From NCBI RefSeq assembly GCF_056746865.1, contig NZ_CM163382.1: a stretch of 64,000 nt of DNA; one strand, given 5' to 3'. Position 1 is the first letter of the stretch. Each line of letters opens with the position of its first letter. Under the pieces are notes generated by a model that saw nothing but the letters and a program-made list of their open reading frames with translations, was not told the DNA's origin and made no database searches. A program made the position numbers and the translations under genes. Of the stretch, positions 2,712-16,521 are shown one piece after another.

Positions 2712-3466
<755 letters not shown>

Positions 3467-3570
3467 ATCAGCATACTTGTCCTTAGCCTTCTGCAGTGAC
3501 AGCTGGTAGTACAGCGTGCTTCTGGCCAGCCCTGCAGCCTTTAACAGGTCAGACTGGCAGTGTCCGCACC

Positions 3571-4092
3571 TCAGGCTCCGGATGACTTTCGTTTTTTCTC
3601 CAGCTCCTGGCGCTTTTTTTCCAGGAGATGCTCCTGCATGGCTTTCAGATATGCATTTTCTGCGCGAAGATAACGCAGCTCATTCTTCATCTCTTCCGGC
3701 GTCATGTTTGCCTCGTTTTCATGGGTATCATCAGAACGGGTCATACTTTTCTCCTTCCTGCGCCTGATAAAGGCCTCATTACCAGATTTGCGGTAGCCTT
3801 TTATCCAGTTTTTAACCGTGTTGTGGCTGGGAATGTTAAACCGGGCAGCTACCCGGGGTAGAGACTCAGAATGCCCGAGAGCATAAAGAACCACGCAAAG
3901 TTTATCTTCAGGAGAATAGCTACGCTTGTGTCTGCAATCCAGTGCCCGAGGACCGTGAAGAAGAAAAAGATTAATCCAGTGTGAGAGGCTGGTGTGAGAA
4001 AGTTGAAAGAGTTTTGCCGTAGAAATGATGCCTGCATGACCAGCCAGGTAATGATTTACAGCGGCAAGTTTTACTTCAAATGAATGTTTCAT
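3571..4092 (-). CDS. insJ: IS150 transposase OrfA (InsJ), HTH DNA-binding protein, 173 aa
   Basis: Translation MKHSFEVKLAAVNHYLAGHAGIISTAKLFQLSHTSLSHWINLF...; ATG at complement 4090..4092 (ORF track starts 3 codons earlier at GTG). Confidence 0.9.
   Translation of the reverse strand: MKHSFEVKLAAVNHYLAGHAGIISTAKLFQLSHTSLSHWINLFLLHGPRALDCRHKRSYSPEDKLCVVLYALGHSESLPRVAARFNIPSHNTVKNWIKGYRKSGNEAFIRRRKEKSMTRSDDTHENEANMTPEEMKNELRYLRAENAYLKAMQEHLLEKKRQELEKKRKSSGA
3613..3620 (-). other. Programmed -1 ribosomal frameshift slippery heptamer A-AAA-AAG of IS150
   Basis: cttttttt on + strand = AAAAAAAG on coding strand near 3' end of insJ; IS150 frameshifting is established knowledge. Confidence 0.6.
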
Positions 4093-4143
4093 AAACTGCA
4101 CCTTCAGATGTCAGATTATGTCCAACATTTGGGGTGCAGTTCA

Positions 4144-4165
4144 TGGCGCGTCTTATCAGGCCTAC
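4144..4165. repeat. Right half of REP unit split by IS150
   Basis: tggcgcgtcttatcaggcctac; see 2694..2711. Confidence 0.6.
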
Positions 4166-4221
4166 GTCGAGTCGAACCTCCCTGCCCCCGGAGGTTCTCA
4201 TCCTCATGAGCTACAAATGCA

Positions 4222-4252
4222 AAAAAGCCTGCTCGCTGAGCAGGCATTTCGA
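4222..4252 (-). terminator. Rho-independent terminator of proK
   Basis: aaaaaagcctgctcgctgagcaggcatttcg: GC stem-loop followed by U-run on minus strand immediately 3' of tRNA. Confidence 0.75.
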
Positions 4253-4255
4253 ATT

Positions 4256-4332
<77 letters not shown>

Positions 4333-7875: not shown

Positions 7876-8580
7876 TTAAAATCTGGCACTAACCCCCATC
7901 GTATACAGATAGTCGCTATTGTTAGTGGTATTTTCTGTCTGAGATAGCGCCGCATAGGCAGCAATATTTTGATTGAGCAACATATCAGCGCCTACGGTGA
8001 CATCCAGCCAGTTGCCGTTCTGGTTTGTCGCCGTCATCCGGCTCAGGCCTGATTGCGCCTTCCAGATATTCTCGCCAAATTGCTGGTTATAGCTGATTTG
8101 CGCCCAGGGTCGGAGATCGCCAAGCCGGGAGTCAACACGCCAGCCTAAGGTACTCACGCTGGCATGCCATAACGGATCGGCCAGCGTGGTAGTACTGTCG
8201 CCAAACTCGTTATACATCGAGGTGGTTGTGCCATCGTAATGTAATGCCGCGACCGGGCCGGTTGTAACCTGCTCATATAAAGGAAAATTCCAGCCCATAC
8301 TCATACTGCTGGTCACATCCACAGGAGTTTCTTCCGCCAGATTGACTTCCAGTCCCAGCGCCCTTTGGCTACTTTGAATACGTTGCGACAAAATATCGTT
8401 GTAATCAGGTTGATGATCACTATCCCAGGTGTAACGCTCTGTGGAATGTCCGGGTTGCGTATCAACGATATATTCTTGTTGCCAGGCGTAAGCTGTGTTG
8501 AGAAAAAAGGCACTGATTACCACACTCGCCAGCAGGCTTAGCTGCCAGCGACCACCGCTTTTTTTTATGATCATTAACAC
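7876..8580 (-). CDS. yhjY: YhjY, conserved protein with autotransporter-like beta-barrel domain
   Basis: Translation MLMIIKKSGGRWQLSLLASVVISAFFLNTAYAWQQEY... signal peptide plus beta-rich domain ending in F; start may be 2 codons downstream. Confidence 0.85.
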   Translation of the reverse strand: MLMIIKKSGGRWQLSLLASVVISAFFLNTAYAWQQEYIVDTQPGHSTERYTWDSDHQPDYNDILSQRIQSSQRALGLEVNLAEETPVDVTSSMSMGWNFPLYEQVTTGPVAALHYDGTTTSMYNEFGDSTTTLADPLWHASVSTLGWRVDSRLGDLRPWAQISYNQQFGENIWKAQSGLSRMTATNQNGNWLDVTVGADMLLNQNIAAYAALSQTENTTNNSDYLYTMGVSARF

Positions 8581-8731
8581 GACTCCAGGGAAGAGCCGAA
8601 TTCGGCAATATTATTGTCATTGTATGAAGGATATCGGGCATAGTAGCCCTGTATTAAATATTGACTTTTTCACCGATGCGTCAAGAAAAGCGGCTGAAAT
8701 TTTTACGATCGGGTACATAGCGAGGGAAAGT

Positions 8732-9295
8732 ATGGAACGTTGCGGCTGGGTGAGTCAGGACCCGCTTTATATTGCCTACCATGATAATGAATGGGGCGTG
8801 CCTGAAACTGACAGTAAAAAACTGTTCGAAATGATCTGCCTTGAAGGGCAGCAGGCTGGGTTATCGTGGATCACCGTCCTCAAAAAACGCGAAAACTATC
8901 GCGCCAGCTTTCATCAGTTCGATCCGGTGAAGGTGGCTGCAATGCAGGAAGAGGATGTCGAAAGACTGGTACAGGACGCCGGGATTATCCGCCATCGCGG
9001 GAAAATTCAGGCAATTATTGGTAATGCGCGGGCGTACCTGCAAATGGAACAGAACGGCGAACCGTTTGCCGACTTTGTCTGGTCGTTTGTCAATCATCAA
9101 CCACAGGTGACACAAGCCACAACGTTGAGCGAAATCCCTACATCTACGCCCGCCTCCGACGCTCTATCTAAAGCCCTGAAAAAGCGTGGTTTTAAGTTTG
9201 TTGGTACCACAATCTGTTACTCCTTTATGCAGGCATGTGGGCTGGTGAATGATCATGTGGTTGGCTGCTGTTGCTATCCGGGAAATAAACCATGA
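8732..9295 (+). CDS. tag: DNA-3-methyladenine glycosylase I (Tag), 187 aa
   Basis: Translation MERCGWVSQDPLYIAYHDNEWGVPETDSKKLFEMICLEGQQAGLSW...; start at ATG 8732. Confidence 0.95.
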   Translation: MERCGWVSQDPLYIAYHDNEWGVPETDSKKLFEMICLEGQQAGLSWITVLKKRENYRASFHQFDPVKVAAMQEEDVERLVQDAGIIRHRGKIQAIIGNARAYLQMEQNGEPFADFVWSFVNHQPQVTQATTLSEIPTSTPASDALSKALKKRGFKFVGTTICYSFMQACGLVNDHVVGCCCYPGNKP

Positions 9296-9732
9296 TTCGG
9301 GAAGCGCAACGTTCAGAACTCCCCGCGATCCTCGAACTGTGGCTGGAAAGTACAACCTGGGGGCATCCCTTTATAAAAGCGAATTACTGGCGTGATTGCA
9401 TTCCGCTGGTGCGGGATGCCTATCTTGCCAACGCGCAAAACTGGGTCTGGGAAGAAGACGGTAAGTTTCTCGGTTTTGTCAGCATTATGGAAGGCCGATT
9501 TCTGGCTGCAATGTTTGTCGCACCGAAGGCCGTCAGACGCGGTATTGGTAAGGCGCTGATGCAGTATGTGCAGCAGCGCCATCCCCATCTGATGCTGGAG
9601 GTTTATCAAAAAAATCAACCGGCGATAGATTTCTACCATGCGCAGGGTTTTCACATTGTCGACTGCGCATGGCAGGATGAAACCCAACTACCCACCTGGA
9701 TTATGAGCTGGCCGGTGGTTCAAACGCTGTAA
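9292..9732 (+). CDS. yiaC: GNAT family N-acetyltransferase YiaC
   Basis: Translation [33 protein letters not shown]...; overlaps tag stop by 4 bp. Confidence 0.92.
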
Positions 9733-12034
9733 GTGTCAGTTCCGGACCGTTGTATTTTTCCAGCCATGCCAGCGCCGTATTACCCGCACAGCCATTCCCC
9801 AGCCGCGAGCTGGGGAGATCTTTGGTCAGAACGTTCACCGCGCCGTTTTTACAAATACCGTCAGCGGTTAAATCCAGATCCGGCCAAGCCCCTTCATGAA
9901 TACAAATCACGCCAGGTTTAATTCCCTCGCTAATGACCGCTCCGGCAAGAATTTGCCCGCGTGCGTTCCACAACCGAACAATATCGCCATCTTGTATGCC
10001 GCGCGCCTGGGCATCGTCAGGATGAATGGTGACAGGCTCACGATTTGCCACCGCGTACAATTCGCGCAGAGAACTGTAATTCAGCTGGCTGTGCAGACGA
10101 TGTGCCGGATGAGCAGAAAGTACCTGCAACTGTTCCGGTTCGGCATTGCCCTGCCATTCGTCCGGCTCCAGCCACATTGGATGCCCAGGGCAATCCGGAT
10201 AAGCGTAATCGGCAATACGCTGCGAGAAGATTTCAATCTTGCCGCTGGCGGTTTTTAATGGATGCGCCTGCGGATCGCGGCGAAAATCGGCGAAGCGAAT
10301 AAACCGCTCACTGTCCGGGTTTTCCGGCATCTCAATTAACTGGTTGGCTTTCCAGAACTCAGCAAATGGCGGCAATTCAACCTGCTGGCTTGCCCCGCGC
10401 TGCCGGGCAACGTTATAAAACGTTTCCAGCCATTGCAGCTCACTTTGTCCTTCCGTAAACCGCGCATAGCCGCCCTTCTCCCAACGTTCACTCAACTCGG
10501 CAAAGACATCAAAATCATTACGCGCTTCATAACGTGGCGGCACCACTTGTTTCATCGGCACCAGATGCTGATTACTGTAATCACCGGTCATGGTGAGATC
10601 ATTACGCTCAAAAGAGGTAGTCGCAGGCAGAACGATATCCGCGTGTTTCGCCGCAGCCGTCCAGAAGCATTCAGAGATCACCACCAGCTCCGGTTTTTGC
10701 CAGGCACGGATCAGGCGATTGGTATCCTGATGATGAGTAAAGTTGGCACCGCCCGCCCACCAGATAAAACGAATATCCGGGAAATGTCGGTTCATACCGT
10801 TGTGTTGATATGCGCCACCAGGGTTTTCCAGTGCTTCAACAATGCGGGCAACAGGGATTTTATCTACCGCATCGGTGCCGCCAGGCAAGCTGCCCTGCAT
10901 GGAAGAGAGCACCGCAGAACGCCGCGTGGGGTTACCACCATTGGCAAAATGATAAGAAAGACCAAAACCGCCGCCGGGTGTGCCGATTTGCCCCAACATT
11001 GCCGCCAGCGTGACGATCATCCAATGTTTTTGCTCACCAAACTGTTGACGCTGCATTCCCCAGCCAGCCATCAGCATGGTCGTGTTTTGGTGGAAAAGAG
11101 CCGCCAGCTCGCGGATTTTCTCTGCGTTAACCCCACAAATCCCTGCCGCCCATTCGGCGGTTTTGGCTATTCCGTCACTCTCGCCCAGCAAATAAGAGGC
11201 GAAGACGGCATAACCGGTGGTGCAACGCGCCAGAAACGCTTCGTCGTGCCAACCATTTTCCACCAGCGTATAGGCGATCCCCAGCATCAGCGCAACATCG
11301 GTGCCCATGTGCGGTGCCACCCACTCCATTTTATCGCCAAAGAACTCAACGGTTTCCGATCGCATTGGATCAATGCAGATCAGCTTTTTCCCGCTGTCAC
11401 GCAGTGCAGAAAAGTAAGAAAGCCCCTGCTCATCGGATGCATTCCACGCAATTTTCAGCGTATTGAGTGGGTTAGCACTCCACAGCACCACGACATCGCT
11501 ATGTTCCAGCACCAACGGCCAACTGGTTTGCTGTTGATAAACTTCGCTGCCCCCCACGACATACGGCATGATCGCCTGTGCTGCACCGGTCGAATAATCC
11601 CCCAGATGCCCGGTATAACCGCCTGCCAGCGCCATATAGCGTTGTAATAATGTCGAGGCCTTATGCAGCACGCCGTTTGAACGCCAGCCGTAGGAACCAG
11701 CAAAAATCGATGCCGGACCATAAGCCTCACGAATGCGTTTATGTTGTTGGTGAATAAGATCCAGCGCCTCATCCCAACTCACACGAACAAATTCATCCTG
11801 CCCGCGAATGCCTTGCGGTTTTTCCGGTGACGCAAGAAAGCCTTTGCGCACCATTGGAAATCGTACCCGCGTATTGCTGTGAACCTGGTCGCGAACCGCG
11901 CTCTGCAAGGAGTTTTCCATTCCTGTGGTTAACGCGCCACGCGAGCTAAGCACGGTTTCGCCGTCGGTTTCAACCAGCATGGGCCCCCAGTGGGCGGCAG
12001 TCAGAACGGAATATCGTGAGGATGAGTTGGCCAA
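9701..12034 (-). CDS. bisC: Biotin sulfoxide reductase BisC (molybdopterin oxidoreductase)
   Basis: Translation [43 protein letters not shown]...; 777 aa; 3' end overlaps yiaC 3' end convergently by 32 bp. Confidence 0.95.
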
Positions 12035-12186
12035 ACCGAAGGCTCCTGAAAGGTTAGATGTATTGAGCAGTTAAATATTACTTACAAATTTCCGAGTATT
12101 CCCAGGAATAATCTTCATGTTCACGCGGCATAATCTCCCGCCACGGAACCCGTGGCAAAGAATAAAAAGGTTATTAAGGATTAACA

Positions 12187-12846
12187 ATGAAGAAACGTGT
12201 TTATCTTATTGCCGCCGTAGTGAGTGGCGCTCTGGCGGTATCTGGCTGCACAACTAACCCTTACACTGGCGAACGCGAAGCAGGTAAATCTGCTATCGGC
12301 GCAGGTCTGGGCTCTCTCGTTGGCGCGGGTATTGGTGCGCTCTCTTCTTCGAAGAAAGATCGCGGTAAAGGCGCGCTGATTGGCGCAGCAGCAGGCGCAG
12401 CTTTGGGCGGCGGCGTGGGTTATTACATGGATGTGCAGGAAGCGAAGCTGCGTGACAAAATGCGCGGCACTGGTGTTAGCGTAACCCGCAGCGGGGATAA
12501 CATTATCCTCAATATGCCGAACAATGTGACCTTCGACAGCAGCAGCGCGACCCTGAAACCGGCAGGCGCTAACACCCTGACCGGCGTGGCAATGGTGCTG
12601 AAAGAGTATCCGAAAACGGCGGTTAACGTGATTGGTTATACCGACAGCACGGGTGGTCACGACCTGAACATGCGTCTCTCCCAGCAGCGTGCGGATTCCG
12701 TTGCCAGCGCGTTGATCACCCAGGGCGTGGACGCCAGCCGCATCCGTACTCAGGGCCTTGGCCCGGCTAACCCAATCGCCAGCAACAGCACCGCAGAAGG
12801 TAAGGCGCAAAACCGCCGTGTAGAAATTACCTTAAGCCCGCTGTAA
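12187..12846 (+). CDS. yiaD: OmpA-family outer membrane lipoprotein YiaD
   Basis: Translation MKKRVYLIAAVVSGALAVSGC... lipobox then OmpA C-terminal domain (NVIGYTDSTGG...NRRVEI). Confidence 0.93.
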   Translation: MKKRVYLIAAVVSGALAVSGCTTNPYTGEREAGKSAIGAGLGSLVGAGIGALSSSKKDRGKGALIGAAAGAALGGGVGYYMDVQEAKLRDKMRGTGVSVTRSGDNIILNMPNNVTFDSSSATLKPAGANTLTGVAMVLKEYPKTAVNVIGYTDSTGGHDLNMRLSQQRADSVASALITQGVDASRIRTQGLGPANPIASNSTAEGKAQNRRVEITLSPL

Positions 12847-15408: not shown

Positions 15409-15529
15409 ACTTTTATCCACTTTATTGCTGTTTACGGTCCTGATGACAGGACCGTTTTCCAACCGATTAATCATAAATATGAAAAATAATTGTTGCATCA
15501 CCCGCCAATGCGTGGCTTAATGCACATCA

Positions 15530-15688
15530 ACGGTTTGACGTACAGACCATTAAAGCAGTGTAGTAAGGCAAGTCCCTTCAAGAGTTATCGTTGATACCCC
15601 TCGTAGTGCACATTCCTTTAACGCTTCAAAATCTGTAAAGCACGCCATATCGCCGAAAGGCACACTTAATTATTAAAGGTAATACACT
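15530..15688 (+). promoter_or_regulatory. cspA long 5' untranslated leader (cold-box / RNA thermosensor region); 5' boundary approximate
   Basis: About 160 nt AT-rich leader upstream of cspA ATG; cspA leader function is established knowledge, TSS not determined here. Confidence 0.55.
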
Positions 15689-15901
15689 ATGTCCGGTAAA
15701 ATGACTGGTATCGTAAAATGGTTCAACGCTGACAAAGGCTTCGGCTTCATCACTCCTGACGATGGCTCTAAAGACGTGTTCGTACACTTCTCTGCTATCC
15801 AGAACGATGGTTACAAATCTCTGGACGAAGGTCAGAAAGTGTCCTTCACCATCGAAAGCGGCGCTAAAGGCCCGGCAGCTGGCAACGTAACCAGCCTGTA
15901 A
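15689..15901 (+). CDS. cspA: Major cold shock protein CspA, 70 aa
   Basis: Translation [70 protein letters not shown]. Confidence 0.98.
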
Positions 15902-15928
15902 TCTCTGCTTAAAAGCACAGAATCTAAG

Positions 15929-15958
15929 ATCCCTGCCATTTGGCGGGGATTTTTTTAT
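15929..15958 (+). terminator. cspA rho-independent terminator
   Basis: atccctgccatttggcggggattttttt. Confidence 0.8.
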
Positions 15959-16088
15959 TTGTTTTTCAGGAAATAAATAATCGATCGCGTAATAGAATCT
16001 AGTGTTATTTTTGTGAAGAATAAATTTGGGTGCAATGAGAATGCGCAACACCGTAAGAAAGGCGGGAATAATTTCCCGCCGAAGACGC

Positions 16089-16241
16089 TTACTCTTTCAA
16101 TTTGCAGGCTAAAAACGCCGCCAGCTCATAACTCTCCTGTTTAATATGCAATTCACACAGTGAATCTCTTATCATCCAGGTGAAAAATAAAAGCGTGAAA
16201 CAAATCACTATTAAAGAAAGTAATCTATATTTCTGCGGCAT
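16089..16241 (-). CDS. hokA: Type I toxin HokA (Hok/Gef family membrane peptide), 50 aa
   Basis: Translation MPQKYRLLSLIVICFTLLFFTWMIRDSLCELHIKQESYELAAFLACKLKE; intact frame. Confidence 0.9.
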   Translation of the reverse strand: MPQKYRLLSLIVICFTLLFFTWMIRDSLCELHIKQESYELAAFLACKLKE

Positions 16242-16301
16242 TCCCAGCCCCCTGTGTTGATTTCCAACGAGTAAGAGGCTAACCTTATGGTGTCTATGCA
16301 T
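16089..16301 (-). CDS. mokA: MokA, in-frame upstream reading frame coupled to hokA translation, 70 aa
   Basis: ATG at complement 16299..16301; frame continuous into hokA; hok/mok/sok architecture is established knowledge. Confidence 0.6.
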   Translation of the reverse strand: MHRHHKVSLLLVGNQHRGLGMPQKYRLLSLIVICFTLLFFTWMIRDSLCELHIKQESYELAAFLACKLKE

Positions 16302-16521
16302 AGAGGGGCCTCACTTTGATTTATAGTCAGGTGGGGCTTTTCTCTGTCTGCCTTTCGGTGAATACCTGAGACAAACAGTCTCAAGCACCCGCAGCTATTC
16401 TAGCTTAATAAGTTCGTTTCTTCTCCTTGATATAATCCTAAAAAAATCTCATAAAATTAATATATGAGACAATCTTTATTCAGCAGAAGATTATTAAAGG
16501 TTGCTCTATTATTTAGCGATA

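Follow-up and report, generated by a model that had tools for sequence, protein, structure and literature searches.

The DNA under study (64,000 nucleotides, hereafter the window) is part of an Escherichia coli chromosome: its positions 9200-10200 are 100% identical to strain 118UI, and the RefSeq gene coordinates of that strain match the open reading frames (ORFs) of the window exactly across the first 50 kb. Two genes on opposite strands, yiaC and bisC, meet here tail to tail, with tag lying immediately upstream of yiaC, and the ORF listing of the window together with the other sources named places them as follows.

8732-9295, + strand: tag, 3-methyladenine DNA glycosylase I (RefSeq annotation of 118UI, sequence)
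9292-9732, + strand: yiaC, GNAT lysine acetyltransferase, 146 aa (ORF, RefSeq, AlphaFold2, family alignment)
9701-12034, - strand: bisC, biotin sulfoxide reductase of the DMSO reductase family, 777 aa (ORF, RefSeq, structure alignment)
9701-9732, both strands: dual-coding overlap of 32 bp, encoding YiaC from I137 (part) on the + strand and BisC from L768 (part) on the - strand

The 32-bp overlap and its genomic setting

According to both the ORF listing and the sequence, the two coding regions share exactly 32 bp. The bisC stop codon (TAA) reads as TTA on the + strand at 9701-9703, that of yiaC (TAA) occupies 9730-9732, and each of them is contained in the coding sequence of the partner on the opposite strand, which is what defines a convergent overlapping pair. 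The codon registers are such that position 1 of the yiaC codons is opposite position 1 of the bisC codons, position 2 is opposite position 3 and position 3 is opposite position 2. The coordinates of both genes in the RefSeq annotation of strain 118UI are identical to those of the window's ORFs, and in K-12 the RefSeq overlap also measures 32 bp (MG1655 yiaC 3713652-3714092, bisC 3714061-3716394). ORFs, stop codons and both RefSeq annotations thus agree with the convergent overlap at 9701-9732 that a first-pass annotation of this DNA had described. Of 5426 complete E. coli genomes, 5420 contain a 56-bp segment spanning it; 3548 have the identical sequence, and the identity is at least 95% in the remaining carriers. 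The overlap is already present in public annotation, the overlapping transcripts have already been published, and three published data sets together with the annotation cover all that is essential, so that we are dealing with an ordinary locus, to which the present analysis makes the minor additions of cross-genus conservation, asymmetric constraint and a probable origin of the junction.

A particular case is that of E. coli BE104 (NZ_CP040643.1, 3846980-3847378), in which nearly all of bisC is absent and yiaC is intact: the match to the window ends 8 nt past the yiaC stop, and a 153-nt remnant of the bisC 5' end is annotated as a pseudogene. This probably represents an engineered deletion that spared the overlap.

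On the other side of yiaC, tag is the first gene of the + strand unit; its stop and the yiaC start share the 4 bp ATGA, and tag-yiaC therefore looks like one translationally coupled unit. This arrangement, with a tag of 187 aa ending in the ATGA that starts yiaC, is the one present in Escherichia. In Salmonella, Citrobacter, Enterobacter, Lelliottia, Phytobacter and Pseudescherichia the tag product has 193 aa and its gene reaches 23 bp into yiaC, because there is one base fewer upstream of the yiaC ATG; in these six genera yiaC is overlapped at both ends, by tag at the 5' end and by bisC at the 3' end.

From the RefSeq coordinates, the first 50 kb of the window contain eight convergent gene pairs, two of which overlap (yiaC/bisC by 32 bp and a small ORF/hokA by 24 bp), the remaining six having spacers of 31-107 bp, with room for a bidirectional terminator. 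The second overlap involves a 23-aa hypothetical ORF (+ strand, 16041-16112) and hokA (- strand, 16089-16241), beside which Rfam places sok (16239-16390); the pair 'ysaE-hokA' appears in the ExcludonFinder table (PMC12288877). Elsewhere in the window, the cspA thermoregulator 5' UTR and its gene are recognised by Rfam at 15529-15956 (498 bits), and the name 'cspE' that RefSeq gives to the CDS at 15689-15901 in strain 118UI looks like a slip of the naming pipeline. An IS3-family IS1397 transposase with programmed frameshift lies at 2744-4332, between dppA and tRNA-Pro (4256-4332).

Protein ends, conservation and coding constraint

Stop codons carry no start-site ambiguity, and the only issue is therefore whether both frames are translated to their end. 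The C-terminal 149 aa of BisC align to the extreme C-terminus of the solved DMSO/TMAO reductases 1eu1, 7l5i and 1dmr: the end of BisC pairs with '...VEKYAGAPVTVTVFDTPK' of 1eu1 as far as residue 778 of 780, and the alignment to 7l5i runs as far as residue 809 of 813, BisC residues up to P774/A775 being covered by these alignments. On this side the overlap encodes the family-conserved T-A-F-D/E-P-P motif and three variable terminal residues. For YiaC (146 aa), the nearest solved relative is YjaB (2kcw), with 147 aa. An exhaustive HMMER search returned distant GNAT relatives (35-44% identity), mostly 140-150 aa long, which match YiaC only up to residue 140-141 and whose tails read ...[IL]M[ST]W[QKN] and diverge beyond. 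The AlphaFold2 model of YiaC, obtained with 33 orthologues, has a mean pLDDT of 95.1 and places the last β-strand at residues 133-140, with the tail 141-146 predicted to be disordered and the pLDDT falling below 50 for residues 144-146; M138 and W140 are invariant among the 33 orthologues of the family alignment. Following this model, the yiaC side of the overlap comprises the last three to four residues of the strand (I-M-x-W, conserved) and a six-residue disordered tail. Both frames are open to the same positions in the 14 loci compared below and, judged from these alignments, both ORFs are genuine and have ends typical of their families.

The comparison comprises the window and 13 further loci obtained from a genome scan and from genomic-context look-ups. 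Six of these are from Escherichia (K-12, E. albertii, E. whittamii and three atypical lineages), four are from Salmonella enterica, Citrobacter amalonaticus, Enterobacter ludwigii and Lelliottia amnigena, and the last three are contigs with a YiaC that bears the name Raoultella/Enterobacteriaceae, Phytobacter or Pseudescherichia. The overlap is retained in all 14 loci, and therewith in at least eight genera, and the position of the bisC stop relative to the yiaC start is constant throughout. Twelve of the 14 (Escherichia, Salmonella, Citrobacter, Enterobacter, Pseudescherichia and the Raoultella-like locus) have an overlap of 32 bp; it measures 38 bp in the other two, Lelliottia and Phytobacter, where a synonymous CTT-to-CTG change in bisC L768 removes the yiaC TAA and YiaC gains two residues. 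Among ten representative loci, invariant columns amount to 72% in the overlap, compared with 40% in yiaC-only and 50% in bisC-only sequence. Stretches of 32 nt as conserved as the overlap make up only 3% of those in the 3' 900 nt of bisC and do not occur in yiaC, and the 3' regions flanking the overlap have no extra conservation.

Third codon positions were compared inside and outside the overlap. For yiaC, 8 of 10 are invariant inside the overlap, as opposed to 13 of 135 outside (Fisher p = 2e-6), and for bisC the corresponding figures are 4 of 10 and 22 of 299 (p = 0.006), the four invariant ones being those opposite YiaC M138, W140, Q144 and T145. The overlap sites that vary are bisC third positions, and the changes are either synonymous (P773, P774, T769, L768) or exchange D and E at BisC 772; in YiaC they alter residues 141, 142, 143 and 146. 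Purifying selection on the BisC tail L-T-A-F-D/E-P-P-A is thus shown, and, as far as the aligned sequences tell, the constraint is dual but asymmetric, with BisC dictating most of the sequence and the disordered tail of YiaC being a passenger. The locus provides a clean small example of asymmetric constraint, in which synonymous changes accumulating in one gene alter the disordered tail of its partner and can even make it longer. In practical terms, positions 9701-9732 have to be left intact when either gene is deleted or recoded. Beyond such bookkeeping the significance is small, and no long-standing question is opened.

Transcript 3' ends and RNA pairing

The following features, identified in this work or mapped onto the window from published tables, bear on where the two transcripts end and on whether they pair.

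9733-10012, + strand: C-rich, G-poor untranslated RNA past the yiaC stop (composition, PMC7815308)
9795-9817, + strand: hairpin inside the bisC CDS, candidate 3'-end determinant of the tag-yiaC RNA (consensus scan, folding)
9380-9580, - strand: C-rich stretch, candidate Rho loading site for the bisC RNA (composition only)
9698-9720, both strands: p19-captured 21-nt duplex AUUAUGAGCUGGCCGGUGGUU / CCACCGGCCAGCUCAUAAUCC, labelled 'bisC yiaC' (PMC7373196 Table S3)
9876-9896, both strands: another duplex captured by p19, 144-164 nt beyond the end of yiaC (PMC7373196 Table S3, mapping)

A consensus scan for terminator-like sites gave no hit on the - strand throughout 8400-12400 or on the + strand throughout 9072-9794, and a bidirectional intrinsic terminator (G+C-rich hairpin, A tract and U tract) is absent from 9600-9790 on either strand. 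Folding around the overlap is no better than that of shuffled sequence on both strands (z = -0.39 and -0.60), and Rfam gives no match near it. The earlier statement that there is no room for separate terminators holds, since the two coding regions leave no gap between them and nothing resembling a terminator lies within or next to the overlap; with neither spacer nor intrinsic terminator, each mRNA therefore ends inside the partner gene. A - strand stem at 9640-9676 with a run of seven T, terminator-like in this strain, was considered as a bisC terminator and rejected: some 20 nt separate the T run from the stem, and neither K-12 (-26.4 vs -13.8 kcal/mol) nor other genera preserve the stem intact.

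The only terminator-like + strand site that the scan places near the overlap is the hairpin at 9795-9817, located 63-85 nt past the yiaC stop, with a dG of -15.7 kcal/mol and a weak U tract (tail AUCUUUGG). Across the 14 loci pairing is retained in 89% of the cells, compensatory changes number 0, and the substitutions break pairs; the conservation of the hairpin is thus accounted for by the BisC codons (P-S-S-R-L-G). The hairpin may act as a weak terminator or as a block to exonucleases after Rho termination, or it may have no role.

On the + strand, Adams et al. (eLife 2021, PMC7815308, Supplementary file 2) report a Rho termination region at MG1655 3714344, which they assign to the antisense class with respect to bisC; bicyclomycin raises the coverage downstream of it from 23 reads to 112 (Rho score 7.3, p = 5.5e-14). 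The peak of this region is 252 nt past the yiaC stop, at about position 9984 of the window. The + strand RNA past this stop has C/G values of 1.15-1.93 over 280 nt, which exceed the 95th percentile of the window (1.71) at about +100 to +260; C-rich untranslated RNA and bicyclomycin-sensitive read-through, the marks of a Rho-dependent terminator, are thus found together on the + strand. The curated Term-seq tables of the same study contain no 3' end between 3713200 and 3714499. The first-pass annotation had named transcriptional interference or shared 3' ends as the consequence of the overlap, and Term-seq as the check. Interference would be plausible, although read counts at the locus are low. 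Shared 3' ends find no support, as the tables list no discrete end in or near the overlap and + strand RNA is still seen 144-164 nt beyond yiaC, with the Rho region peaking at 252 nt.

A + strand operon of Conway et al. is quoted in PMC7373196 (Table S1) as running from P 3710766 to T 3712183. The coordinates of Huang et al. are 1977 below those of NC_000913.3 (the duplex at 3712082 was mapped to 3714060) and were taken to refer to an older MG1655 version, on which basis the operon end, as quoted in that table, falls at about position 9800, inside the hairpin at 9795-9817 and 180 nt from the Rho-region peak (about 9984). From the published bicyclomycin data, the tag-yiaC RNA runs some 70-250 nt into bisC antisense before being stopped by Rho, and transcription of tag-yiaC yields antisense RNA over the 3' part of bisC. 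On the - strand, a C-rich stretch in which C/G reaches 2.0 lies 120-320 nt beyond the end of bisC, a composition which makes Rho termination of the bisC RNA inside yiaC plausible, and this RNA probably ends likewise inside yiaC/tag.

The pairing of the two transcripts has also been captured. Huang et al. (mBio 2020, PMC7373196, Table S3) list sense/antisense RNAs of 21-22 nt that pair perfectly, leave 2-nt overhangs and were recovered with p19; these are ascribed to RNase III, a dependence which they demonstrated globally and not per locus. The duplex labelled 'bisC yiaC' maps to 9700-9720 (+) and 9698-9718 (-), on the overlap, with 184 and 90 reads (2.2 and 1.1 RPM), and from the one at 9876-9896 it follows that the + strand RNA extends past the hairpin at 9795-9817. 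The yiaC-bisC pair is moreover among the 165 convergent 'excludons' of MG1655 (ExcludonFinder, NAR 2025, PMC12288877, Table 1), for which the transcripts have to overlap in at least 50% of 58 MG1655 transcriptomes. Where both RNAs coexist they would thus pair, with cleavage of the duplex by RNase III, as the p19 capture suggests, and any mutual repression of yiaC and bisC is probably small at the low read counts seen.

Two further dsRNA signals were noted in the vicinity. A p19-captured pair of 21-mers lies inside bisC at 10807-10829 (MG1655 3715169-3715189), about 1.08 kb past the yiaC stop and far past the Rho region, and is therefore to be assigned either to yiaC read-through or to an internal antisense promoter in bisC. 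An abundant dsRNA cluster is located at the 5' end of yhjY (window about 8380-8650; 3710779-3711010 in the older MG1655 version, PMC7373196 Table S1), where the yhjY and tag-yiaC transcripts overlap divergently by 267 nt, taking the Conway promoter (3710766) as quoted there. The tag-yiaC RNA is thus paired with the transcript of an adjacent gene at its 5' as well as its 3' end.

Since some of the long overlaps in databases are mispredictions, the overlap could be an annotation artefact, with one ORF not being translated to its annotated stop or one of the genes not being real. No support for this was found: the stop codons leave no ambiguity, YiaC and BisC are both enzymes with experimental work behind them (there is an acetyltransferase/lactylase literature on YiaC), both C-termini are typical of their families and both frames remain open to the same positions in the 14 loci, all of which leaves an artefact with a negligible probability. 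A shared bidirectional terminator, or a common 3' end within the overlap, would suit a pair that has no spacer for separate terminators, and Ju et al. (2019) reportedly found by SEnd-seq that convergent genes of E. coli often have such a terminator between them. However, neither strand has a hairpin with a U tract in or beside 9701-9732, the - strand stem at about 9640-9676 loses stability already in K-12, the + strand RNA is still found 144-164 nt beyond the stop and meets Rho termination some 250 nt beyond it, and curated Term-seq 3' ends are lacking in the region. A common terminator is therefore largely refuted, and we take it to be very improbable.

A selected, functional excludon, in which convergent transcription and RNase III would make the expression of YiaC and BisC mutually antagonistic and would hence have kept the arrangement across Enterobacteriaceae, has several observations in its favour and is in our view still unlikely. 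The pair is in the MG1655 excludome and its transcripts overlap according to the literature (PMC12288877; duplexes 9698-9720 and 9876-9896); an RNase III-type duplex lies exactly on the overlap and points to processing by this enzyme, whose involvement was established globally in that study (PMC7373196); and at least eight genera share the overlap, such strict conservation being also expected of a selected regulatory overlap. Against this, dual coding explains the conservation fully, the variable sites being exactly those that are free in BisC; the flanking 3' regions are not conserved beyond the ordinary; the duplex is scarce (2.2 and 1.1 RPM) and convergent 3' overlaps give about 38-fold fewer p19 reads than divergent ones (PMC7373196); and no functional link between YiaC and BisC emerged. 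Reciprocal expression data for yiaC/bisC were not found in the literature. That 3' pairing and RNase III reciprocally tune YiaC, a lysine acyltransferase, and BisC, a biotin/methionine sulfoxide reductase, is decidedly doubtful; if true, yiaC-bisC would be a conserved functional excludon across Enterobacteriaceae and not a frozen accident of dual coding. The reading which we favour, and consider quite likely, is that yiaC/bisC is a genuine and ancient convergent overlap of two ordinary genes, which arose as a by-product of the joining of their 3' ends and constitutes no dedicated device.

Probable origin of the junction and comparison with known systems

The nearest YiaC homologues outside the group (44% and 41% identity) are encoded directly after tag and beside glyQS, and glyQS is also inside the window in E. 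coli. In these outgroup tag-yiaC loci there is no bisC, and yiaC is followed by a spacer of about 450-550 bp and then by + strand genes, which are either a ghrB-like 2-hydroxyacid dehydrogenase or GDT1 plus a yiaD-like OmpA lipoprotein. A tblastn search with BisC against the outgroup loci returned nothing (E > 2), Salmonella BisC being 87% identical. This comparison, of four outgroup loci with two distinct arrangements, suggests that a 3'-end junction fused yiaC and bisC. The latter would have come beside yiaC in an ancestor of the Enterobacteriaceae, either by insertion (between yiaC and yiaD) or by deletion of the spacer; a loss of bisC in the outgroup lineages fits equally well as insertion. 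Family motifs are kept up to about YiaC Q141 and BisC P774/A775, for which reason the junction would be placed near yiaC codon 141 and bisC codon 774-775, that is near 9712-9714, and its exact position cannot be proven because both tails are short. After joining, each gene may have extended by a few codons into the antisense of its partner until a stop was met, and such 3' extension after stop loss or displacement is the stated origin of convergent overlaps (PMC2716372).

As a convergent overlapping pair, yiaC/bisC thus belongs to a known kind, with two bona fide genes on opposite strands having their stops inside each other, of the type ascribed to 3' extension. One E. coli genome is reported to have 75 convergent overlaps, as opposed to 586 co-oriented and 2 divergent ones (Huvet & Stumpf, PMC4161906), and 'phase 1' accounts for nearly half of the convergent overlaps longer than 4 nt (bioRxiv 10.1101/2025.11.07.687268); the register of yiaC/bisC, with a length of 2 mod 3, corresponds to 'phase 1' by elimination from the definitions given in that work. 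The present pair differs in that its 32 bp are longer than the common 4-nt case, and in that its conservation across genera, with BisC dictating the sequence, is unusually well documented.

In respect to termination, the locus resembles known cases of Rho-terminated antisense read-through, with the same C-rich untranslated RNA after the yiaC stop and a bicyclomycin-sensitive region, but here the rut-like region and the termination zone are wholly inside the CDS of the partner, and the equivalent for the bisC RNA is inferred only. With bidirectional intrinsic terminators it shares the converging geometry (-> <-) and the need for a 3' end for both genes, but not the hairpin, which yiaC/bisC does not have. 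Finally, the pair has in common with excludons the overlap of transcripts in at least half of 58 transcriptomes and a captured duplex of the RNase III type; unlike in excludons, at yiaC/bisC the coding sequences themselves overlap and not just the UTRs, and the mutually exclusive expression that defines these systems is, for yiaC/bisC, putative.
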